Below, in pieces: positions 21,884-64,000 of a stretch of DNA of 64,000 nt. The translations under genes were made by a program, and so were the position numbers. Numbering within the stretch: the stretch's first letter is position 1; the number at the start of each line of letters is the position of its first letter. The DNA is from Acidimicrobiales bacterium (GTDB lineage: Bacteria > Actinomycetota > Acidimicrobiia > Acidimicrobiales > SZUA-35), in assembly GCA_020630065.1 (NCBI GenBank), contig JAHDCC010000019.1, positions 7,139 to 71,138 of the forward strand, written 5' to 3'. Under the pieces are notes generated by a model. It had not been told where the DNA came from. It was given only the letters and a program-made list of their open reading frames with translations, and did no database searches.

Positions 21884-22069
21884 AGTTTCTTTTCTCCTTC
21901 GTAAAGAAAACTCAGATATCGCCCAGTCGGCGGATACGTCGTCTGCATTAGGATACAAATTCGAAACATAGGCTCCAATGCTGGATTGGGTATCGCCGAC
22001 CCGCCTACTAGCCGAAGAACCGCCGCGTTGTCCTCATCGACCTGATTGCTCGGTATCGTGGACTCAGAA

Positions 22070-22170
22070 CCAAAGACGGGTGCCTGGCGTAACCAGGCTG
22101 AGATTGAGGTCTTATGCCTCGGGACCGTTCGAACCTGATACGGATAGTACCGTCGAAGGGACCAGCGGTC
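22070..22170 (+). promoter_or_regulatory. TPP (THI-box) riboswitch
   Basis: ACGGGTGCC...GGCTGAGA...ACCGTTCGAACCTGATACGGATAGTACCGTCGAAGGGA matches the conserved CUGAGA and ACCUGAUxxGGAUAAUxCCxGCGxAGGGA cores. It lies about 45 nt upstream of the thiE start. Confidence 0.85.
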
Positions 22171-22214
22171 GTGTCGTCACGCGTAGCCATGGAACTTTCA
22201 GCGGAGGAGACACG

Positions 22215-52894: not shown

Positions 52895-54948
52895 CGGTTT
52901 ATCCCCGTCGCCGCTATCGGACGAACAGTAGCGTTGGCCGACGGCGCGCCTGGGCCCAAGGTGTGTTTGTCCTCGCTGCTTGCGTGTCGTCCGTCAACAA
53001 CTAGAAATAGGGCTCTGGCCGCTACCAAGAAGTTCAGGTAGCGGTAAAGGAAAAAATGTGGGATCGAATATGCCACAGCCGAATCTTTCACTTTGGATAC
53101 CAGTACGGCTACCCATGATGTGAAGAGTTGGATGATCATTGCCGAATACCAGATCGCGGCCAGCAAATATCGTTCTCCCGACAATGACGAAACAAGCACA
53201 AATACGTCGATGAGTGGGGTCAGAAGAGGGATGACAAAATCGGTCATGAGGCGATACGCAAGCGCTGGCAAACGGTACCGAGAGTTATTACCTCCCGGGT
53301 GCCGTTTGCGATGCTTCCACATCACTTGAAGCATGCCGTAACGGCGGTCGAGGAGGTGTTTCTTCAGTGCGGGGAGGCTGGTTTCTCCGCCAACCGACAC
53401 AGGCGCAGTTGGTTCGAATCGAAGATCCCAACCGCGAACTCCTAACGCGACAGTCAAGTCCATATCTTCGGCCGAGGTCACGTCGGGCACTCCACCAATG
53501 TCGACCAACGCTGATCGGCGGACGGCGGTTGCGGCCCCAGATATTTCCGTTCCAAGGCCGAGCATGATTTCCATCCGCTGGTTGATGTGGAACTGCGATA
53601 CTCGTTCGATGGCGGCAAGATTTCGTAGCCAAGATCCGTTCCGATTAAGTGCATGACCTGTCACCAAAGCAACTGTCGGATTCGACAACGGCCCAACTAG
53701 TCTCGCAAGCGTTTTAGGAGCGAACTCTGCGTCAGCGTAGGTGAGAATACAAATATCGTGGCTTGCGTTACGAATACCCTCGTTGACGGCAGTCGCCCGT
53801 CCAGAATGGGTTTGGGAAAGGACACGAACTCCAGGGACTTGCCTTGCTACGGACGCAGTCTTGTCGTTTGAACCATCATCGATAACGATAATTTCGATGG
53901 TCCCCGAGTAGTCAGAACGCCGTATTGATGAAAGTGTGGTCTCTAAGGTTTGGTCGGCGTTATGCGCTGGTATCAGCACTGAAACCGCAGGGTTTGTGGC
54001 TGTTTCTGATTCAGGTTTTGTTCGCACAAACCGCCGTCGACCGGCGACAAGCAGCAGCGCAAACAGGTATCTGCCGATTAGGAAAATACCGACAACGACC
54101 GCCAGTATCGCTAGTGCGGTTCGCAGGTACTGTTGAAACCCGGTACTCCACACCAATGTTTTGCTCTGGAATTGCCGGAAGAAACCAATATCGGTTGTGC
54201 TCGCCACTCCTGCGTAGTCAGACAGCGCATCCAGTTCATACTGTTCGTCGTCGAGTAGCTCTAACGTAGCGCCAACGGCATCTAGCTGACCTGGTTCGCC
54301 TAACAGTACCACCTGGCTGGTCCCGTCGAGCTCTCTGCGGTCCGACGTTGCCACCTGGTCGACGAATACGGTCACAAAACCAGCGTTCTGAAGGTTCTCG
54401 GCCGCCTTCACCTCGGCTTCAGACAGCGAAGTGGCGTCACGACTATGGGGCAACCGAACAAACCGCGGGGATTGACCGGTAACGCCTTCGACGTAACGTT
54501 GGGTCAATTTGTATTGAGCGAGTTGGTCCCCCGCTGAGAGATCTCCGATCCTGGGCCGGTTGAACGAACCTAGCCCTATCTCGTGGCCGGCGTCAGCAAT
54601 TCGTCGCAAGACGTCTTCGTTACCCGATATGTCAACCCCGGCCACAAAAAACGTAGCCCGCTTGTCTGCTTTTTCGAGAGCAGACAACAGCGAACCGGTT
54701 GAAGAGTCCGAAAGTCTGGCATCGATGACAAGCGCCGCTGTTGGACGCTCCGCAGAGACCCCGGGTTGCCCCTCGCTTGGGATGGAGTCCGGGATATTTT
54801 CGTTCGCAGCCGCCGCCGTGGGTGCAGCGCTGTCGGTTGAGCCAACTATCAGGGGATGACCAACATTGAGCAGGGTTGACAACGCCAAAAGTGCAGCTAA
54901 ACCTACCATTGCTAGGGTCAACGCCCAGCGAGTTAGAATGTTCTGCAC
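52891..54948 (-). CDS. Fused NodB/CE4 deacetylase-like domain plus processive family-2 glycosyltransferase (PgaC/MatB-like exopolysaccharide synthase)
   Basis: N-terminal TM segment and a NodB-homology region (RATFFVAGVD...AGHEIGLGSF). A TM segment follows. The GT2 core has VSVLIPAHNA, IVIDDGSNDKT, YADAEF and SAEDMDLT, and is followed by C-terminal TM helices. Confidence 0.75.
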   Translation of the reverse strand: MQNILTRWALTLAMVGLAALLALSTLLNVGHPLIVGSTDSAAPTAAAANENIPDSIPSEGQPGVSAERPTAALVIDARLSDSSTGSLLSALEKADKRATFFVAGVDISGNEDVLRRIADAGHEIGLGSFNRPRIGDLSAGDQLAQYKLTQRYVEGVTGQSPRFVRLPHSRDATSLSEAEVKAAENLQNAGFVTVFVDQVATSDRRELDGTSQVVLLGEPGQLDAVGATLELLDDEQYELDALSDYAGVASTTDIGFFRQFQSKTLVWSTGFQQYLRTALAILAVVVGIFLIGRYLFALLLVAGRRRFVRTKPESETATNPAVSVLIPAHNADQTLETTLSSIRRSDYSGTIEIIVIDDGSNDKTASVARQVPGVRVLSQTHSGRATAVNEGIRNASHDICILTYADAEFAPKTLARLVGPLSNPTVALVTGHALNRNGSWLRNLAAIERVSQFHINQRMEIMLGLGTEISGAATAVRRSALVDIGGVPDVTSAEDMDLTVALGVRGWDLRFEPTAPVSVGGETSLPALKKHLLDRRYGMLQVMWKHRKRHPGGNNSRYRLPALAYRLMTDFVIPLLTPLIDVFVLVSSLSGERYLLAAIWYSAMIIQLFTSWVAVLVSKVKDSAVAYSIPHFFLYRYLNFLVAARALFLVVDGRHASSEDKHTLGPGAPSANATVRPIAATGINR

Positions 54949-55110
54949 GCCGCCCCCGTTCGGTTACCGAAGTCGTTCCGGCCATATCCACGCCGATGGC
55001 CTCAACCAACTATTAACGATACGGCAATTACGTACTGCGACATGCAGCTAGAAGCCAACTCGGCTAAGCAAAACTACCGTCACAACTCAATATCTGGCTA
55101 ACATTCTGTT

Positions 55111-56070
55111 GTGTCAACGATTCTTGATGTAAATGTGGCAGCTTTCGAATCTGAAACTCACCGCAAGCAGCAGTCGGTAGCCGAACAAACGATGCAAAGC
55201 CTCGAGACCGGTTTTGTCTATGCGGACCACACCATTTCGAATGATCTGCTGGATACCGCCTACGAAATGTTAGGGCAGTTCTTTGCGTCGACCCAGAGCG
55301 AAAAGGACTCGGTTATCGCACGAGGTTCTAACGGTCAAACCGGCTACACCCCCGTAATGGTTGAGACGGCTGTTTCAAGCGAACTGGCGGACTGGAAAGA
55401 AATGTTGAACTGGGGCACTCAGCTACCGAAGCATCATCCGCTCCGTCGGCGGTATCCGAACCGATATGTTGACGCGGTTTTGCCGGAACACATTGTGCCC
55501 GGCATCGGTCAGGTCCTTTACGAACTTCACCACGCGTTAGTGGATTTACAGCGCCGATTTCTTCGGATCGTGGCGTTAGGTATCGGATGTGACCCATCCT
55601 TTTTCGATGGAATGACCCGTTATGGTTCCTCGCTTAGCAGGGCTATTCATTACCCTCCGATGGAACACGCCCCGAACTTCGACGGGATATCGCCGGTTTG
55701 GGCCGCTGAGCATGGCGACATCAATTTAGTTACGGCGTTGCCAAGAGCGAGCGGGCGCGGATTGCAGGTCAAAACATCTCAGGGCTGGATCGATGCCCAA
55801 CCTCCTGAAGGCCACGCAATACTTAATACGGGCATCATGCTTGAACATCTCACCAATGGGCGAATACCGACCGGTATTCACCGGGTGGTCGCTGACCCAG
55901 AACAACAAGACGGACGCCTGTCGGTTGTGCAGTTTATGCACCCAAGTCCCGCTACCATCTTGACCCCAGCCACCTCATGCATCGAACAGAGTCGCCCACA
56001 GAGATTTGGAGCCATCTCGGCCGACGACCTGTTGAACCAGGTGCTCTATGACATAAATCTACGTGAATAG
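55111..56070 (+). CDS. 2-oxoglutarate/Fe(II)-dependent oxygenase (isopenicillin N synthase-like family)
   Basis: HxD...H facial triad candidates (EHGDINLVT ... IPTGIHRVV) and an RLS motif. The length is typical of 2OG-FeII_Oxy proteins. GTG start. Confidence 0.65.
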   Translation: MSTILDVNVAAFESETHRKQQSVAEQTMQSLETGFVYADHTISNDLLDTAYEMLGQFFASTQSEKDSVIARGSNGQTGYTPVMVETAVSSELADWKEMLNWGTQLPKHHPLRRRYPNRYVDAVLPEHIVPGIGQVLYELHHALVDLQRRFLRIVALGIGCDPSFFDGMTRYGSSLSRAIHYPPMEHAPNFDGISPVWAAEHGDINLVTALPRASGRGLQVKTSQGWIDAQPPEGHAILNTGIMLEHLTNGRIPTGIHRVVADPEQQDGRLSVVQFMHPSPATILTPATSCIEQSRPQRFGAISADDLLNQVLYDINLRE

Positions 56071-56082
56071 CGGCGTCGAAAT

Positions 56083-56529
56083 CTAGGTTAGTTTCGCTTT
56101 GACCAACGTGGCCACCAGGCGACCGTCCGCACGGCCAGCAACCTTGGCGTTTATGGTCTTCATCGCAATACCCATGTCAGCTTTTGACGTCCAGGCGTTG
56201 GCTTCAAGTTCAGCGACGATAAGCGCCTCAAGCTCTTCTTCAGCCATCGCCTCGGGCAGATACGTTTCGAGAACAGCTAGTTGAGCGCGCTCGGTTTCGG
56301 CGCGGTCGCTGGCTCCACCTGCTTCGAACGCTTCAGCCGCTTCGACCCGTCGCTTTGCCTCATTGCTGATTACCTTCTCGACTTCGGCGTCGGTGAGCGT
56401 CTTCGCTGAACTTCCTGATACCTCAGCTTCTTTGACCGCCGCCATGATGGCGCGTAACGTTTGCACTTTGACTTTCTCTTTCGCTTTCATTGCGGTGGTC
56501 ATATCTTTTTTGATGGTCTCGATCAGCAT
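56083..56529 (-). CDS. GatB/YqeY domain-containing protein
   Basis: 148-aa protein, MLIETIKKDMTTAMKAKEKVKVQTLRAIMAAVKEAEV..., highly typical of the YqeY family. Confidence 0.8.
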   Translation of the reverse strand: MLIETIKKDMTTAMKAKEKVKVQTLRAIMAAVKEAEVSGSSAKTLTDAEVEKVISNEAKRRVEAAEAFEAGGASDRAETERAQLAVLETYLPEAMAEEELEALIVAELEANAWTSKADMGIAMKTINAKVAGRADGRLVATLVKAKLT

Positions 56530-56601
56530 GATTCCAACCTACATGCGTTGAGCACCGTTAGAGCCGTAAGATTGGGGTCAACCGGAACTAACATTATGTG
56601 C

Positions 56602-57123
56602 ATGGCACGATTTCTGGTATTGCTCCGAGCCGTGAACGTCGGCGGCAAGAACCGTGTGCCGATGGCGGAGCTACGAGCCGCCGCCAGCCAGTTGGGCTAC
56701 CGCAAGATCGACACGTATCTTCAGAGCGGGAATCTCGTTCTTTCCTCCGACACTGACCGTTCGTCCATACAGACGAACATAAAGCGTTGTGTCACGGAAC
56801 GATTCAGGGTCGATGTTACGGTCATAGTTCGATCAGCAGACGAAATAATGACTGTCGTAACCGACTTTCCTTACCAAGAAAGTGCACCCAATTCCTCAGG
56901 CGTTGTGTTCCTCGACCGCGAAATAGAGTTGGTTGATTCGACACGACGTTTCCTGCCCGACCGGTTCACGTCTGCAGGTTCGAACCTCTATGTCGACTGT
57001 CCGACTGGGTTTGGACAAACGAAGCTGTCGGTTAGCTGGATTGAACGGACCGCCAATTGTCGCGGTACCAGACGGAACTGGAAAACGGTTATGAAACTAC
57101 ATGAGCTACTTCAGCAAATCTGA
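56602..57123 (+). CDS. DUF1697-family protein
   Basis: MARFLVLLRAVNVGGKNRVPMAELR is the hallmark N-terminus of DUF1697 proteins. The ORF-track 5' extension overlaps the yqeY-like gene and is rejected. Confidence 0.7.
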   Translation: MARFLVLLRAVNVGGKNRVPMAELRAAASQLGYRKIDTYLQSGNLVLSSDTDRSSIQTNIKRCVTERFRVDVTVIVRSADEIMTVVTDFPYQESAPNSSGVVFLDREIELVDSTRRFLPDRFTSAGSNLYVDCPTGFGQTKLSVSWIERTANCRGTRRNWKTVMKLHELLQQI

Positions 57124-57276
57124 AGTATTTCAACAAGCAAACAATTCGGGCTAGGACCACTACCACCAACAGATAAGCATCCCGCCTTTGGAGATGTCCT
57201 TGTGTTAGGTTTTTTTCGTTTCTAGGAAGCAATTCTGAAAGATCCTACGACAGATCGGCTAACCGACAGGTATCTC

Positions 57277-58797
57277 ATGGCTCCTTACGATTTTTTACGA
57301 GTAACCGCTCTGCCAGCAAAGACGTTTACCGTCTCTGCACTGGTTCTGAGCGTGTTGACCATCATCTCTCAACCAGCGCAAGCGACCGGATTCGACACGC
57401 TGTATTCGGCGACCTCGGTGTGCCAAGAAATCCGCACGTTCCAAACCGGCGTTGGAGACGACGAAATCAACACTATTTCAATTCCGGAAGGGCCCGGGCC
57501 AATCGTCGCCGCTTTTGTCACCTGGGTTGGAGCTAACGATCTCACGCCTGATCTGGTTTCAACCCCAGGGCAGGCGGACAGCTCACTCACTATCAACGGA
57601 AGCGAAGTGTCCGGCGTTTCACCGGTCGGCGAAGCTGGGAGCCAAGAACTCGAACCGGGCAAATACTGGTATGCGTGGAACGCCGACATCGGCCCCAATG
57701 GCGCAAATATCCTCAACGGAACTTCCGCCCACGAACTTTCGATTAGCGGTTGGAAAGTCACCAACGAAGACGAGTATCACGGTCGAAACGGCGCAGAGAT
57801 AGACATTGTCTACGATGTTTCTCCTTGTTCAGAGCCGGTCGATGTCACAATATTGTCTGGAGTCGACTGGATATATGAGACGCTCGGCCAACCTCGTTCA
57901 ACGACTATGGTCTTACCGGTAGCGCCCGCTGCGAACGAGCGAACAGAAACTGTTCGTCTTAGTTTGTGGGGCGGAGAGAAACGAACCGATCGGTGCCGTT
58001 TCTCAGCATTATGGATGCTTGCTGGCTCTGACCCTTTGCCAACCGGAAGTGAGCTGAACCTGTTCACGCCGACCCCTCACCAGCCAGCATTCGGAATCAA
58101 TAACGCGGTTGAGATTGTTGCCAATCCGTTCCTTGGTCCCGATTCGACCTGTGAACATGAACCTAACCCTGAGCCGGACGTGCCGTACGACGCAGGCCAT
58201 CTCTACCCAGAAGGTGCAGCTACTGCTCCTTACAATGCGGTCGCAGTTCGTCGGCATGCGTTGACTTCGGATGCCGAGGTTCTTTCGATCGAAGTCGAAC
58301 TTCGGGTACCGGGCGACGCGTCTTGGGTAGCCTTGCAGCTCGAATCTGAGGGAGAACACTACGGAGAGTCCGGGGCTTGGACTGCTAGTTTCACGACAAG
58401 CACTACGGCTTCAGCTGCTTCTTCGACCAGTACTTCGTCGGAGCCAAAGACCTTTGTCGACAATGTGATCGTACCTGGGCTGGCCGAGGTCGAACAGCAG
58501 GCTGGAGCGTCCTCTATTTCCGAGAGTGAAGCTCAAGGCAACGTCGAAACTGAAGTTGGTGGGATCACGGTTTCCAATGACGCCGCTACGAACCAAGATG
58601 CTGCCTCAAATCAAACTGTGGCAGGCTCGATTCAAGCGAGTTCGTCAACCTCAGGCAGCGACGCGTCTTCTTCTGGCACGTTGGCACTGACCGGTACTTC
58701 TACGTTTGCTCTGGTTGTTGCTTCGTGCGCAATGATTTTCGGAGGCCTGCTTCTTCTGCGACGTCGCTCGATGTCTTTAACCTCGTCGGAAACGTAA
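57277..58797 (+). CDS. Secreted surface protein with a C-terminal LAxTG sortase sorting signal
   Basis: N-terminal signal peptide (...IISQPAQA). The C-terminus has LALTG (nt 58681-58695), then the hydrophobic stretch TSTFALVVASCAMIFGGLLLL, then RRR. An S/T/A-rich stalk precedes the motif. Confidence 0.75.
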   Translation: MAPYDFLRVTALPAKTFTVSALVLSVLTIISQPAQATGFDTLYSATSVCQEIRTFQTGVGDDEINTISIPEGPGPIVAAFVTWVGANDLTPDLVSTPGQADSSLTINGSEVSGVSPVGEAGSQELEPGKYWYAWNADIGPNGANILNGTSAHELSISGWKVTNEDEYHGRNGAEIDIVYDVSPCSEPVDVTILSGVDWIYETLGQPRSTTMVLPVAPAANERTETVRLSLWGGEKRTDRCRFSALWMLAGSDPLPTGSELNLFTPTPHQPAFGINNAVEIVANPFLGPDSTCEHEPNPEPDVPYDAGHLYPEGAATAPYNAVAVRRHALTSDAEVLSIEVELRVPGDASWVALQLESEGEHYGESGAWTASFTTSTTASAASSTSTSSEPKTFVDNVIVPGLAEVEQQAGASSISESEAQGNVETEVGGITVSNDAATNQDAASNQTVAGSIQASSSTSGSDASSSGTLALTGTSTFALVVASCAMIFGGLLLLRRRSMSLTSSET

Positions 58798-58802
58798 AAC
58801 TG

Positions 58803-59336
58803 TTAGATACCTTCGAACTGGCAGAGATAGTGGACCGATACGCCACGTTTGCGCAGAATTTTGCTGCCGTCTAGCTCTGGCAGGTCGATCACGAAACTTG
58901 CGTGGTCGACCACTCCCCCTAGTTCTTCGATCAGCTCAATGCCAGCTACTGCTGTGCCGCCGGTAGCGATTAGGTCGTCGAGCAGCAAAACTCTGTCGCC
59001 GGGTTCGATGGCGTCGTCTTGGATTTCCAGGGTTTCAGAACCGTATTCCAGTTCGTAGTCTCGCGTTATCGTTGCGCCAGGAAGTTTGCCTTGTTTGCGG
59101 ATCGGAACAAACCCAACCCCAAGTTGATATGCGACGATTCCGCCGAGCACAAACCCTCTCGCTTCAAGGGCGGCCACCTTGTCAAACCGGTGACCGTTGT
59201 AGTTCTGCACGATCTCGTCCGAGGCCAGCCGAAGCCCCTCTGCGTCACCAAACAGCGTGGTAATATCGCGGAACATAATTCCATCTTTGGGGAAATCTGG
59301 GATAGTGCGAATCAGATCTTTGATAGTTGAAGTCAT
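58803..59336 (-). CDS. apt: Adenine phosphoribosyltransferase
   Basis: [15 protein letters not shown], and the PRPP motif [14 protein letters not shown]. 177 aa. Confidence 0.9.
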
Positions 59337-59500
59337 TTGACTGACTATTGTAGCTGTATGTCTGATGGGGAACCGGACACCTCAACGCTAGACGTGTAGA
59401 CGCGGCAAATCCCGGATTAGATTCCCACCTTTGAAGGGATATATCCAATAGCCGAATTCCTCAACTAGGATTGCACCGTAGTCAAAAAGGGAGTTCGTTA

Positions 59501-60199
59501 ATGTTCGGAAGAAGCGTGGTCAAGACTTCAACCTCTTTAGGGCTAATGCTCGCCATCTCGTTGGTGGCCGCTAGCTGTGGCGCTGTGCAGGACTTAGCCG
59601 AAGAACAGACGGGTGAAACGATCTCGATCGACAGCCCCGATTTTACTGCCCCAGATTTCGAGGTGCCGGACTTTAACGCTCCCGATTTCACCGTTCCAGA
59701 CATCGTTGCCCCAGATATTGATGTGGACATCATCGAAGCGCCCGAGCTTCCAGATATTCGATTTCCTGATGCCATTGAGATTGAGGTTCCAGAAATCTCT
59801 AGCCCCGATGTGGCGGTAGAGGAAACGGAAGATGAAACGATCTACACGGTTAAAGGCCAGGTATTGTTCGAGTTTGATCAGGCAGAGATGCGGCCCGACA
59901 CCCTTAGCGTCTTGGATGAGATCTTGGACGCCATCGAAAATCGTGACTTTAACGGCGAGGTCGAGATCGCCGGGCACACCGATGCTAAAGGTACCGCGGA
60001 CTACAACTATGATTTATCTGTTCGGCGGGCTACAGGAGTTGCGCTGTGGTTCAGGGAGCGTCTACCGGAGGACCGTTCGGTTGTCGCTGTCGGCTACGGG
60101 GAAGGCCAACCAATTGCGGCGAACACTCTTCCCGATGGCAGCGATGACCCTGACGGGCGGGCCCGTAACCGACGTGTTGAAGTTATCGTTAGCAAATAA
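59501..60199 (+). CDS. OmpA/MotB-family peptidoglycan-binding lipoprotein with an N-terminal xPD(F/I) repeat region
   Basis: Lipobox LVAASC. The C-terminal OmpA-like domain has FEFDQAEMRP...GHTDAKGTADYNYDLSVRRA...NRRVEV. The ATG at 59501 is preceded by AAGGGAG. Confidence 0.8.
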   Translation: MFGRSVVKTSTSLGLMLAISLVAASCGAVQDLAEEQTGETISIDSPDFTAPDFEVPDFNAPDFTVPDIVAPDIDVDIIEAPELPDIRFPDAIEIEVPEISSPDVAVEETEDETIYTVKGQVLFEFDQAEMRPDTLSVLDEILDAIENRDFNGEVEIAGHTDAKGTADYNYDLSVRRATGVALWFRERLPEDRSVVAVGYGEGQPIAANTLPDGSDDPDGRARNRRVEVIVSK

Positions 60200-60206
60200 T
60201 GTTTAG

Positions 60207-61007
60207 CTAGCACGGTTGAGCCAACGCTTCAGATACAAGACTGAGAGCGTCGGCCGTCCCGGCCTGCACCCATTCTGTCGGGATACCGGCTGCACCGATC
60301 GTCCCGTATGACACCTCTAGCCCGGCTCGCTGACATAGAAGTACTCCCGCGGCGATGTCCCACATGTTCGTATGGTGTTCGACATAACCGTCGGTGTATC
60401 CAAGAGCGGCAAACGCTAAGCCAACTGTCGCGCATCGGTACTCTGCGATTCCCCATTTTTGCTGCCTGAATGCTCGCTCTAGTTTGTCGATATCTGACCA
60501 GTAGGGGTTCTCTCCTAGCGCAATTACTCGTATTCCTGTGTCAGCCGGGCCCATGTATGGGTTCGTGTTAAGAAACAGTGGGGACCCTTCAGCGGCTCCC
60601 ACTGTGAGACCAAGAGCGGGTAACGCTATTACGCCAACGGTGGTTTTTTCGTTCTCGACGTAGGCGATTGACACCCCCCATAGTGGTGAACCTCGAAGAA
60701 AGTTCGCTGTTCCGTCGATTGGGTCGATACACCAATATGCGTCCGTTTGGGCGCCACCTAATTCTTCACCTTGCACATCGTCGTTTGGGTACTGCTGGGC
60801 AAGGTGGTGCCGGATGTGTTCTTCAGTCGCGGCGTCGAGATCGGAGACGAACTCCCTTGGATTTTTCTGCCGAACTTCTAAACCGGAGCGGGCACGAAGC
60901 TCGGATAAGGCGAAGGTTCCGGCTTCAATGCTGGCTGCGGTGGCTAACTCAAGTCGTCGATCGAGTTCGTTGCCCATCTTTGGTTCCTGGCTTCCTGCTG
61001 ATGACAT
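60207..61007 (-). CDS. Inositol monophosphatase family protein (second copy in the window)
   Basis: GEELG, WCIDPIDGTANF and WDIAAG motifs. The true start may be the ATG at 60977. Confidence 0.8.
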   Translation of the reverse strand: MSSAGSQEPKMGNELDRRLELATAASIEAGTFALSELRARSGLEVRQKNPREFVSDLDAATEEHIRHHLAQQYPNDDVQGEELGGAQTDAYWCIDPIDGTANFLRGSPLWGVSIAYVENEKTTVGVIALPALGLTVGAAEGSPLFLNTNPYMGPADTGIRVIALGENPYWSDIDKLERAFRQQKWGIAEYRCATVGLAFAALGYTDGYVEHHTNMWDIAAGVLLCQRAGLEVSYGTIGAAGIPTEWVQAGTADALSLVSEALAQPC

Positions 61008-61150
61008 CCGACTTTCTGTTCATCGATCTAGATCGTAGCAGCCCTTTGCGAAGGCCTAACGGCCTGGTGTGGTTTGGCTCCTTTTATCGAAGCGGTTCCT
61101 TCGAGCCTGGAAGCACCAGACCCGAAGGAACATACGTTGCACTTATGGAA

Positions 61151-61369
61151 CTAAAGAGCTAACAGCTGGTCGCAGGTTCGCCAGGTTGTTGGCGAGTTCA
61201 AAGACCCGATCTCAGACTGATAGTCGCTAACTATTTTTTCGGTAACACCGGCATCGATCAACTCAGCTCGGCATGCCTCGTCGATCCATTGGCGTTCACC
61301 CTCGTTCGGACCAGACGTATACACGACCCAACCAGAACCAGGATCAGCCGACATCGCTTTCACCTCAAA
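61151..61369 (-). repeat. Copy 1 of the 72-aa two-Cys module (FEVKAMS...WRTCDQLLAL)
   Basis: The DNA is nearly identical, over about 200 bp, to 62687-62902. Confidence 0.85.
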
Positions 61370-62287
61370 CACCTCGGCGGTAGGGGGATCGACGTGTTTG
61401 TGTTTTTTCAGGTCGGTACCGAGTGTTTTGTCAACTGCTGGATCTAACAATCCATATTTGTAGATGGAAACACCGTCCGGGTTTTTCTGCCGATCTGGCA
61501 GTTGGCTGCGTTCTGCTGGGCCGTCTCCGAATTCACATTCTTCGCGCTCTTCAATGTTGCATTGGACGACGTCATCCATCGCATCTTCGTCCCAAGCCAC
61601 GATGTAGTCGGCGTGTAATGACTCTCCTTGTGTCTCAGCACTGGTATCCGACGACAGGTACCAATCGGTATCGAAATCGACGTCATATCGGATGTTGTAT
61701 TCAGCACGCGGGATTCGGTACGGATGGCTATCTGGGCAGTGATTACTGTTGCCATCTGCGGTGTCTTGATAAGCCAAGTGACTTGTGTTGTCTGGGCTCT
61801 CAAGCACCGGGTTGCCATTAGTGTCAACCGCTAGACATTGGGGGAAGTTCACCTTGAGTTGCATTCCTGTCGGATACATATTGGGATGTGGGGCAAGACT
61901 ATAAGCTTTAAAATGCTCTGGATCACTGTTCTGAACGTCCTGGTTTGCGAGCATTTTCAGACCGTTAGGTATCGGGTTAATAGTGTCTCGATCGAATTCT
62001 AGACCACCTTCAGGGATCGATTTGTAGTAGACGATAATGTCGTATGGCAAGACGGCCTCATCATTTTCGTTGAACAACGTCGGTGCCCAATATCCACTTC
62101 GGTTGTTCAGGCCGCCCTCACAGCTTGATTTACCTTCGGACAACAGACTTTCGCCGGTGGATGCGTAGTTGGTTTCTGTGTTACCCCAAAAGGTGTGCAG
62201 GTGCGCAGCGTTTGGTTCTCCCGGATAAACCACCGGATCATCGTAAGACAAATGTGAGATAGAACCCATCAATTTCGTTTTTCTCAT
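61151..62287 (-). CDS. DUF1996-like protein with a C-terminal 72-aa two-cysteine module
   Basis: The N-terminal SHLSYDDPVVYPGEPNAAHLHTFWGN matches the DUF1996 hallmark (DDPIvfPG..sHlH.FfGn). The C-terminal 72 aa repeat a module found twice in the next gene. No signal peptide is visible. Confidence 0.55.
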   Translation of the reverse strand: MRKTKLMGSISHLSYDDPVVYPGEPNAAHLHTFWGNTETNYASTGESLLSEGKSSCEGGLNNRSGYWAPTLFNENDEAVLPYDIIVYYKSIPEGGLEFDRDTINPIPNGLKMLANQDVQNSDPEHFKAYSLAPHPNMYPTGMQLKVNFPQCLAVDTNGNPVLESPDNTSHLAYQDTADGNSNHCPDSHPYRIPRAEYNIRYDVDFDTDWYLSSDTSAETQGESLHADYIVAWDEDAMDDVVQCNIEEREECEFGDGPAERSQLPDRQKNPDGVSIYKYGLLDPAVDKTLGTDLKKHKHVDPPTAEVFEVKAMSADPGSGWVVYTSGPNEGERQWIDEACRAELIDAGVTEKIVSDYQSEIGSLNSPTTWRTCDQLLAL

Positions 62288-62353
62288 CGCCCATCTCTTT
62301 CTATAGGTGGCAATATTGACCGGTAAGAACCAACGGAGCCAACAAAAGTTCCC

Positions 62354-62395
62354 AGAAAAACGACATTGGGCCGAGTTATGAAACCCGGCCCAATG
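62354..62395 (-). terminator. Rho-independent terminator after the DUF1593-like gene
   Basis: On the minus strand: CATTGGGCCG-GGTTTCATAACT-CGGCCCAATG followed by TCGTTTTTCTGGG. Confidence 0.75.
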
Positions 62396-62416
62396 TATTG
62401 CTGTGTTATGTAAACG

Positions 62417-62641
62417 CTAGTTCTGCGGCATCAGCTGTTCGCAGGTTAGCCAGTTGGTCACCGAGTCCAGCGAACCGATATCGGTCTGATAGTTGGTGAT
62501 CACCTTTTCTGTGACACCAGCGTCTGCTAGCTCGTTACGGCACGACTCAGACACCCACTGGCGTTCGCCCTCATTCGGGCCGAACGTATATACGATCCAT
62601 GCGGAACCGGGATTAGCCGACTTCACCCGCAGCTCAAACAG
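62417..62641 (-). repeat. Copy 3 (divergent) of the two-Cys module (LFELRVKSANPGSAW...WLTCEQLMPQN)
   Basis: It shares the GPNEGERQW, C-R-x-EL-x-DAGVT and W-x-TC-xQL positions with the other copies. Confidence 0.8.
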
Positions 62642-64000
62642 TGGTGTTGGTGGAGGAGGCGGTGGTGTTGTTCCGCCATCGTCAGCTAGTTCGAGTAGTT
62701 GGTCGCAGGTTCGCCAGGTTGTTGGCGAGTTCAAAGACCCGATCTCTGCCTGGTAGCTAACGACCACTGTTGAGGTGACTCCGGCATCGATCAACTCGGC
62801 TCGGCATGCTTCGTCGATCCATTGGCGTTCGCCCTCGTTCGGACCAGACGTATACACGACCCAACCAGAACCTGGACCGTCCGACATCGCTTTCACCTCA
62901 AACAATGACGTTGGAGGTGGTGGAGGTGGAGGTGTTGTTCCACCATCGCCGTCTCCGGTAATTACTATTCTCTCGTATCGTGTAAGACTTGGAGTCCCAT
63001 TATCGGTGACAGCCACAATCACGTGTACGGTCTCGCCCTCAGCTTGTTCAGGGAACGTAAACGACGTCGAGGTTCCGGTCTCAGAGCTCAAGTTAACGTC
63101 GCCGTCAAAGGTGGACGCCGGATCGTAGTGCGACCAAGCGTAACTCAGATTGTCCCCATCAGGGTCCGTGGCAGAAACTGATAGATTAACCGTCGACCCT
63201 GGTTCGACACTCAAGTCGTTGGCGCCGTTGAGGTTTACGATAGGTTCGTGGTTTGCATCTGCGTAACTGGCAGTATTGGCCCAATCGTTACGGGCTGCGT
63301 AGTCTTGTTCAGACGCAGAGAACCAGCGCGTCACGGGTTTAGTCGCGTATCCGTTTTCTGATACACCTGCGTCAGTCCAGTGAGTGTCGTCTAGACGAGG
63401 ACCTTCAAATCGTCCTCCCCAGCCTCCGAAGGTCGGGTCTTCGACCGAACGTAAACCGTTTGGTATCACATGCAAGAACGAGGGGGTATCACCCTCATGG
63501 ATCCATGGCTTTCCATCACCGGGTCCGGTGTGATTATCTGACAATGCGCCGTGGTCTTCGTAGTTTCTCTGCCATGCAGATGATCGCCACTGCCCGTCGG
63601 CGGGATCGATTGCAATCCTGTCGTAGCCGGAATTCGCTGTTCCGTATCCCATCGCCCCAAACTGGTCTTTTGAGACTATCACTTTCAACTTGCCTGGGAA
63701 CCACGTGGCTTGTTGCAGCTCGTTGAGCGATTGTCCGAAGATTGAATATACACGCAGTTTGGACAGAGCCTTGGTTTGTTCCGCTTCAGTTCGCCCCTTT
63801 AGCTCGGTCATAACATCGCCCAGAGAAGATTCTTCGAACGGACCCCACACGAGATACCAGACTTCTCGAGGGTCGTCGTCTAGAAGTTCATCAATTACTA
63901 GGTTCGTCGCCTCGGTTGTTCTATCTTCGGCCACTACCGATTCCAGGGAGCTTGCGGTTGGGTAGTCTTGATCGTGGACTTTGAGGTTTGGATAGACTTC
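62417..64000 (-). CDS. DUF1593 (nucleoside-hydrolase-like) / Ig-like domain protein with two C-terminal two-Cys modules. The N-terminus lies outside the window.
   Basis: The frame stays open upstream of the ORF-track GTG at 63934 (EVYPNLKVHDQDYPTASSLESV...). DDDPREVWYLVWGP and the following region resemble DUF1593. This is followed by an Ig-like segment (VSATDPDGDNLSYAW), poly-Pro linkers and two modules. Confidence 0.55.
   Translation of the reverse strand, partial: EVYPNLKVHDQDYPTASSLESVVAEDRTTEATNLVIDELLDDDPREVWYLVWGPFEESSLGDVMTELKGRTEAEQTKALSKLRVYSIFGQSLNELQQATWFPGKLKVIVSKDQFGAMGYGTANSGYDRIAIDPADGQWRSSAWQRNYEDHGALSDNHTGPGDGKPWIHEGDTPSFLHVIPNGLRSVEDPTFGGWGGRFEGPRLDDTHWTDAGVSENGYATKPVTRWFSASEQDYAARNDWANTASYADANHEPIVNLNGANDLSVEPGSTVNLSVSATDPDGDNLSYAWSHYDPASTFDGDVNLSSETGTSTSFTFPEQAEGETVHVIVAVTDNGTPSLTRYERIVITGDGDGGTTPPPPPPPTSLFEVKAMSDGPGSGWVVYTSGPNEGERQWIDEACRAELIDAGVTSTVVVSYQAEIGSLNSPTTWRTCDQLLELADDGGTTPPPPPPTPLFELRVKSANPGSAWIVYTFGPNEGERQWVSESCRNELADAGVTEKVITNYQTDIGSLDSVTNWLTCEQLMPQN
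62687..62902 (-). repeat. Copy 2 of the two-Cys module (FEVKAMSDGPGSGW...WRTCDQLLEL)
   Basis: The DNA is almost identical to 61151-61369. It is flanked on both sides by PPPPPP(P) linkers. Confidence 0.85.

Follow-up and report, generated by a model that had tools for sequence, protein, structure and literature searches.

Three Copies of One Module in Two Neighbouring Genes

The window analysed here is a stretch of 64,000 nucleotides (nt) from an Acidimicrobiales bacterium (GenBank assembly GCA_020630065.1, contig JAHDCC010000019.1, positions 7,139 to 71,138), at the end of which two co-directional genes encode three copies, here designated as A, B and C, of a module of about 72 amino acids (aa) containing two cysteines (Table 1). 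Three in-frame copies had been proposed in an original prediction made on this DNA, one at the C-terminus of a DUF1996-like protein and two at the C-terminus of a DUF1593-like protein with proline linkers, and both statements were borne out by the coordinates of the copies, all lying on the minus strand, and by Pfam analysis of the hosts. The third copy (C) is diverged, as proposed, yet both cysteines, the GPNEGERQW stretch and W-x-TC-xQL were found in A, B and C alike.

Gene 1 matched the whole PF09362 profile (positions 1-237 of 237) and thus belongs to the DUF1996 family. Gene 2 matched PF07632 (profile positions 98-268, cut by the window end) followed by PF21027, as expected for a Sde182-like protein; in its full-length relative P0001, PF07632 was matched over profile positions 1-268 (E = 3.2e-47). 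From P0038 and P0001, the full-length gene 2 protein is 627 aa long and has a signal peptide. The two hosts had been described as unrelated catalytic scaffolds: the DUF1996 and nucleoside-hydrolase-like (NH-like) assignments were confirmed, but not the term catalytic, as the founding protein, Sde_0182, has an NH-like domain reported to be inactive on nucleosides (PMC8910321). The linkers preceding copies B and C are composed of Gly, Thr and poly-Pro and are themselves a direct repeat of 33 nt with 88% identity.

No further module copy was found in the 64-kb window by tblastn. A degenerate DNA pattern for the module core matched only the sites of copies A, B and C in the window, with 0 matches in 100 shuffles of it.

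Table 1. Position of the two host genes, their domains, the module copies and the linkers in the window.
Feature	Position (nt)	Strand	Remarks
Gene 1, 378-aa DUF1996 protein with module A	61151-62287	-	Signal peptide absent in the window strain
DUF1996 domain of gene 1 (residues 17-232)	61592-62239	-	Pfam PF09362, E = 4.2e-32
Linker HVDPPTAEV, DUF1996 body to module A	61370-61396	-	Strain-divergent island ends here
Module copy A, C-terminal domain of the DUF1996 protein	61154-61369	-	72 aa, FEVKAMSADPGSGW...CDQLLAL; stop codon 61151-61153
Gene 2, Sde182_NH-like and Sde0182_C (former DUF1593) protein	62417 to beyond 64000	-	N-terminus outside the window
Sde182 nucleoside-hydrolase-like domain of gene 2	63407-64000	-	Cut by the window end; E = 2.3e-25
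Sde0182_C beta-sandwich (PKD-like) domain of gene 2	62957-63193	-	Pfam PF21027, E = 4.8e-23
Linker GDGDGGTTPPPPPPPTSL, beta-sandwich domain to module B	62903-62956	-	
Module copy B, first copy in gene 2	62687-62902	-	86% nt and 87.5% aa identity to A
Linker ADDGGTTPPPPPPTPL between modules B and C	62639-62686	-	
Module copy C, diverged second copy in gene 2	62423-62638	-	66-69% nt identity to A and B

Gene 1 follows gene 2 in frame, and the 43 codons from the gene 2 stop to the gene 1 ATG (62288-62416) contain no stop. A read-through fusion of the two genes was considered and rejected: a 1-nt indel distinguishes the spacer in the syntenic locus of a related strain (L064), and 43 stop-free codons are unremarkable.

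A Rare Domain Family outside the Catalogued Ones

An exhaustive HMMER profile search of 1.836 billion representative proteins (50% identity) retrieved 37 proteins at E ≤ 1e-3, and 35 proteins with 96 module instances after local iteration. Two initial hits, P0030 and P0037, were Ig-repeat false positives and were lost in the iteration. A word-indexed protein search with profiles of 3 and 79 sequences gave no match, though carriers are present in the collection, which marks the sensitivity limit of that search. The carrier clusters looked up have one to four members, each on a single contig, and no member is named.

Both cysteines, on whose conservation in homologs the original prediction had staked its proposal, were invariant across the instances (96/96 and 95/95). 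The G of GW, the W of QW, the L, and the G of AG were conserved in at least 90% of the 96 instances. The module consists of a core of about 53 aa and an N-terminal strand, for a total of about 70 aa, with the consensus G-[WFY]-[VI]...(D/N)-G-T-[RK]-Q-W-[VI]-x3-C-R-x2-L-x2-A-G...W-x2-I...C-x2-L. The window copies form a sub-group with those of P0003, P0004 and P0012, having a hairpin 6 residues longer (SGPNEGE for DGT) and a Tyr in place of the third Trp.

The module was compared with Pfam-A (2025 copy), NCBIfam 20.0, PHROGs v4 and the PDB sequences. Against Pfam-A, the three window modules retrieved only Plectin (E = 0.025, below the cut-off) and, when 79 instances were scanned one by one at E ≤ 1, no family was matched by more than two of them; no instance matched LysM (PF01476), and no match was found to the Pfam CBM (carbohydrate-binding module) models, to dockerin or cohesin, or to T7SS_ESX1_EccB. 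NCBIfam gave no match, and 73 instances gave no consistent match in PHROGs, where the unnamed phrog_23116 was matched by six members (best E = 0.013). In the PDB, a search with the module profile at E ≤ 10 returned only noise, including neither EccB nor PlyCB. DUF3011, found in carrier P0015 (E = 9e-4, below the cut-off), was discarded as a chance match since it was absent from all single-module scans.

The absence of the module from named families, for which a profile search had been recommended, thus holds for these four collections. As the comparison covers those four, the module might belong to a family described elsewhere, such as a recent CAZy CBM, InterPro, CDD or Pfam-next entry, to which we assign a very small probability: the 79 and 73 instances gave no consistent sub-threshold match, the PDB gave no hit above noise, no looked-up cluster member bears a source name, and at 35 clusters in 1.84 billion few curators would have met the module. 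No published description of it was found in the literature, in full-text searches that can miss paywalled papers. The autonomy claimed for the module was also confirmed, given its 96 instances in 35 representative proteins, at either terminus and with more than 12 unrelated types of scaffold. These results establish an autonomous and very rare domain family, uncatalogued in Pfam-A, NCBIfam, PHROGs and the PDB.

Carriers, Architectures and Organisms

The carriers have from one to ten module copies, which either follow the signal peptide directly or lie at the C-terminal end, and which are separated by linkers rich in Gly, Ser, Pro and Thr. An N-terminal hydrophobic signal was found in about 30 of the 35 carriers, the exceptions being apparent fragments and gene 1 of the window. 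The scaffolds comprise DUF1996 (4 carriers), Sde182_NH-like (3) and GH5 (2) proteins, an apiosidase-like protein, GSDH, a beta-helix, a reprolysin-like M12 peptidase with fn3, an M23 peptidase with RTX, an NlpC/P60 protein (10 module copies), an S8 subtilase, gamma-glutamyltranspeptidase (gamma-GT), proteins with adhesin-like repeats (FG-GAP, cadherin/Big_9, SpaA-like) and a domain of about 550 aa without annotation (P0016, L005, L018), as well as stand-alone module arrays (P0004, P0009, P0013). On DUF1996 the module is N-terminal in P0012 and P0025 and C-terminal in P0003 and in gene 1 of the window; the occurrence of both arrangements argues for independent fusions of the two domains.

Of the 94 modules in multi-copy proteins, 51 are most closely related to another module of the same protein, and the mean module identity is 49% within proteins vs 32% between proteins. 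Copy A of the window is unusual in this respect, its closest relative (B) sitting in the adjacent gene.

Gammaproteobacterial sequences (L005:1516-4095, L005:2-1156, L018:2056-4410 and P0016) share two or three N-terminal modules followed by the conserved domain of about 550 aa (NCLG-x-ND-x-F-x-SWDGG...). This domain had no Pfam match, and possibly is an uncatalogued glycoside hydrolase-like family that has repeatedly recruited the module.

Genomes were scanned with a degenerate DNA pattern for [RK]QW[VI]x3CRx2Lx2AG. Among the GTDB species-representative genomes it hit 25 loci, of which five (six ORFs, open reading frames) contain true modules and one is marginal. The five true loci all come from metagenome-assembled genomes (MAGs): two loci from two uncultured Acidimicrobiales, encoding P0014 (L011) and P0022 (L013), two (L005 and L018) from one uncultured gammaproteobacterium, and one (L002) from a Thiotrichales MAG built from SRP065251, which is among the seaweed-associated metagenome datasets of a seaweed-microbiome study (PMC10781435). 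The same pattern gave 38 loci in the JGI metagenomes, all false, and none in the IMG/VR viral contigs, where a relaxed variant gave two, both false. A protein-based metagenome scan with gene 1 found no relatives, and a look-up of contigs encoding the gene 1 protein showed no record of it.

Predicted Structure and Its Nearest Neighbours

AlphaFold2 (AF2) models were obtained with high confidence for window copy A (alignment of 79 sequences, pLDDT 93.3, pTM 0.79) and for a canonical member, P0015 122-190 (73 sequences, pLDDT 96.2, pTM 0.84). The two models share the topology strand-strand-strand-helix-strand-helix-helix, forming a compact alpha/beta domain, with the first Cys predicted in the opening turn of helix 1 and the second where the last helix begins; on these models, the invariant pair is presumably joined by a disulfide.

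Foldseek retrieved no significant neighbour in the PDB, the best E value being 1.1 for both models, and nothing significant in BFVD. The best neighbours of the canonical model, none of them significant and without sequence similarity to the module, were the periplasmic repeats of EccB1/EccB5 (TMq 0.51-0.55; 0.55 for 7np7_B1 and 0.52 for 4kk7, the latter with a root-mean-square deviation of 3.2 over 56 columns) and PlyCB (4f87, 4zrz and 7kwt; TMq 0.44, TMt 0.47), with E values of 1.1-5 and probabilities of at most 0.3. In the EccB1 report (PMC4769845), the repeats are described as 51-57 residues long, with a 4-stranded sheet and two helices, and as weakly resembling PlyCB, the cell-wall-binding ring subunit of the streptococcal phage lysin PlyC; both proteins reside in the cell envelope, and a disulfide described there for EccB1 lies in the central core domain, outside the repeats. 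The secondary-structure content and size of the module agree with a 4-stranded sheet plus two helices over about 55 aa, at Foldseek E values of 1.1 or above. EccB repeats pack as a rigid body and PlyCB as an octameric ring, while the module occurs in linker-separated arrays. The predicted PlyCB/EccB-like resemblance is weak and would represent a lead rather than a family membership.

Divergence and History of the Copies

Copies A and B, which had been described as almost identical over about 200 bp, are less close than that: they differ at 30 of 216 nt (86.1% identity), and the identity is 88% when 208 nt are compared. The non-synonymous (dN) and synonymous (dS) distances are 0.09 and 0.40 for A/B, 0.24 and 1.46 for A/C (69% nt identity) and 0.28 and 1.86 for B/C (66%), which shows the three copies to be under purifying selection.

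Two syntenic loci, L064 and L065, were found in close relatives of the window strain. Over nt 54600-64000 their identity to the window is 96-100%, with the DUF1996 body of gene 1 as exception, and the strains differ by about 1-2% in the flanking DNA. In L064, which retains all three modules, 9 of the 216 positions differ from the window in copy A, 1 in B and 5 in C; the A/B distance is 29-30/216 in the window and in L064 alike, with largely coinciding difference positions, which indicates that the copying between A and B predates the split of the strains. The recent duplication or gene conversion originally proposed is therefore not supported, with a dS of 0.40 between A and B against the 1-2% divergence of the flanks and the same A/B distance in L064. 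As A is closest to B, the module would have been copied between the adjacent genes after the divergence of B and C.

The identity between A and B is mosaic (93-100% at nt 31-120 and 151-195; 53-63% at nt 121-165), with identical runs of 41 and 47 nt on either side of a diverged patch of 45 nt. This pattern could also be produced if the similarity were kept by ongoing gene conversion between the adjacent genes, instead of deriving from a single old copying event. Such conversion would fit the longest identical run, unexpected by permutation at nucleotide level (P = 0.011), and several sites at which A varies between strains and one allele matches B. However, the same test on synonymous-capable codons gave P = 0.24, constraint at the protein level explains the conserved blocks encoding GWVVYTSGPNEGERQW and EIGSLNSPTTWRTCDQL, and neither the dS of 0.40 nor the A/B distance shared by the two strains speaks for recent homogenisation. 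We therefore regard ongoing conversion as improbable, even if the repeats can recombine, as indicated by the gene 2 of the second relative (L065:1085-2215; P0039 and P0040). This gene is split by a frameshift and has a single hybrid module instead of two, with a B-type N-terminal half and a C-type C-terminal half and the crossover in the GGTCCGAAYGAGGG stretch, within the region coding for GPNEGERQW. The hybrid derives either from unequal recombination between the tandem copies or from collapse of the repeat by the assembler. In general, the repeated module DNA would remain a substrate for recombination.

Gene 1 diverges from L064 and L065 over its DUF1996 body (about 62259-61390), where the identity falls to 56-92% at nucleotide level, with indels, and to 74% at amino acid level. 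Compared with L064:10013-11311 and L065:2345-3643, gene 1 of the window also has a clean in-frame deletion of 162 nt (junction 62259-62262), through which the signal peptide loses its hydrophobic core and the mature protein about 35 residues, so that the window reads MRKTKLMGS|...|SHLSYDDP where both relatives have MRKTKLMGSMLLGAAGMLGTLVSPAPADA...RIYCATSHLSYDDP. As a consequence, copy A may be unsecreted in the window strain. The divergent island (61390-62259) extends from the deletion to the linker that precedes module A, and this allele may have arisen by homology-anchored replacement of a cassette, module A serving as one homologous end.

Proposed Function of the Module

The interpretation that we favour, on circumstantial evidence and with a probability of roughly 0.55, is that the module is a non-catalytic targeting module binding a repeating extracellular polymer. 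It would act as an autonomous extracytoplasmic domain in beads-on-a-string arrays, with Pro/Gly/Ser/Thr linkers, at either end of secreted enzymes. Its ligand would be a repeating polymer such as a polysaccharide or a cell-wall glycan, on which several copies together would give a strong combined binding, the attached hydrolase being thereby kept at the cell surface or in contact with its substrate. Such multi-copy tethering is the way in which LysM domains and CBMs work. The interpretation is suggested by the extracytoplasmic location, the invariant Cys pair and the terminal tandem arrays on flexible linkers, together with the recurrent fusion to glycosidases and to the peptidoglycan hydrolases M23 and NlpC/P60. 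Wall- or glycan-binding modules are typical of peptidoglycan hydrolases of the M23 and NlpC/P60 types and of GH5 cellulases. Further arguments come from the weak PlyCB/EccB-like fold and from gene 2, in which the module fills the slot of the three CBMs of Sde_0182: the NH-like plus beta-sandwich core of the latter carries three carbohydrate-binding domains (PMC8910321), and the same core carries the modules in the window.

With the CBMs of secreted glycoside hydrolases, such as those of Sde_0182 of Saccharophagus degradans and the CBM2 and CBM10 of marine and soil cellulolytic bacteria, the module shares the terminal position, the non-catalytic character, the low-complexity linkers and the often tandem arrangement, besides the conserved aromatic residues, the conserved Cys pair and the occurrence on GH5, apiosidase-like and Sde182-like proteins. 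The CAZy definition of a CBM asks for a contiguous, discretely folded sequence within a carbohydrate-active enzyme, besides carbohydrate binding demonstrated for at least one member; with regard to the former, the module has a confidently predicted fold and GH5 cellulase-family and apiosidase-like carriers, although it is also present in proteins that are not carbohydrate-active. It differs from CBM2 and CBM10 in being predicted as alpha/beta (four strands, three helices) rather than beta-sandwich or small all-beta, and from CBMs in general in lacking a Pfam CBM match and in occurring also on peptidases, gamma-GT and adhesin-like proteins.

LysM (CBM50) offers a second comparison, being a small alpha/beta domain that forms arrays on wall hydrolases. 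Like the module, it occurs on flexible linkers at either terminus of peptidoglycan hydrolases (M23, NlpC/P60), glycosidases and peptidases, in Gram-positive-type and Gram-negative bacteria. However, LysM has a beta-alpha-alpha-beta fold of about 45 aa and is not known to have an invariant Cys pair in bacteria, whereas the module has three N-terminal strands before the first predicted helix; with no PF01476 match either, the module does not belong to the LysM family.

Some observations weigh against a polymer-targeting role. The scaffolds include peptidases, gamma-GT and adhesin-like proteins besides glycosidases, and such diversity makes a general surface or matrix binder likelier than a substrate-specific CBM. 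The extreme rarity of the family, with its few cluster members on single contigs, means that the architectures are thinly sampled. Gene 1 of the window has no signal peptide, so that its copy A may be non-functional in this strain. Finally, EccB and PlyCB were not among the 50 matches listed for the window-module model, and the Foldseek matches are non-significant.

The functional diversity of the scaffolds would also fit a protein-protein docking or oligomerisation module, by which the enzymes would be joined with one another or with a scaffold partner, much as in dockerin or in the EccB packing. The stand-alone arrays of P0004, P0009 and P0013 are compatible with this, as is the fact that EccB repeats, the top structural neighbours, pack against each other within a protein complex. 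We consider docking unlikely, since no conserved partner gene lies beside the carriers in the loci examined, no dockerin-like calcium-loop motif and no Pfam dockerin or cohesin match was found, and a repeating polymer is the more typical target of modules that occur in tandem, here in 2-10 copies, on flexible linkers.

The module might otherwise be a passive structural element without a specific ligand, serving as a disulfide-stabilised stalk or spacer or contributing to solubility or stability. Its small and compact form, its conserved hydrophobic and aromatic core and its copy number of 1-10 would suit such a role, which nevertheless appears highly unlikely: the polar positions of surface type (T-[RK]-Q, C-R-x-x-L-x-x-A-G) are strongly conserved across phyla, the Pro/Gly/Ser linkers already supply spacing, and the module is rare and always terminal to the catalytic part, while spacers are usually common and Ig- or fn3-like.

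Within the polymer-targeting interpretation, a more far-reaching proposal may be advanced only tentatively, as we hold it to be somewhat improbable as a whole. The module could found a new family, distinct at the level of the fold, of glycan or cell-wall binders stapled by a disulfide (a new CBM family) in a few marine or host-surface-associated Acidimicrobiales and Gammaproteobacteria, with a ligand outside the known CBM targets and with the shared DNA serving as homologous anchor for swapping catalytic cassettes between genes and strains.

Other Features of the Window and of the Related Loci

An inositol-monophosphatase-family gene (60207-61007, minus strand) adjoins gene 1. It is uninterrupted in the window (266 aa) as well as in L065 (256 aa), and is split into two ORFs of 136 and 115 aa in L064 (11485-12256). 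On the plus strand, nt 57277-58797 encode a secreted protein of 506 aa whose Ser/Thr/Ala-rich C-terminal region is followed by LALTG, a hydrophobic stretch and RRRS, which from the sequence constitute a predicted sortase cell-wall sorting signal of LAxTG type; no Pfam match was recorded for the 506-aa gene at the syntenic position of L064 (13667-15187). A penicillin-binding protein with PASTA domains adjoins the syntenic locus. Both this protein and the sorting signal suggest an uncultured actinobacterium as the probable source of the window. A thiamine pyrophosphate (TPP) riboswitch was detected at nt 22066-22179 of the plus strand (RF00059, 65.4 bits, E = 1.4e-10).

Implications

The module represents a new, rare family of accessory module, the general impact of which is limited by its extreme rarity, 1.84 billion representatives having yielded 35 clusters (50% identity). 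The locus also provides a small, concrete case in which repeated module DNA serves as a substrate for recombination: one strain has a hybrid module, and another a divergent, cassette-like allele bounded by the module. Should the module bind a glycan or a cell-wall polymer, it would constitute a new family of targeting domains, with a fold that has no significant match among solved structures, and it could find use in probing for its ligand or as an affinity tag. It would then aid the annotation of secreted enzymes in marine actinobacterial and gammaproteobacterial MAGs, and would provide functional hints for DUF1996 and Sde182/DUF1593, poorly understood scaffolds that have recurrently recruited it.

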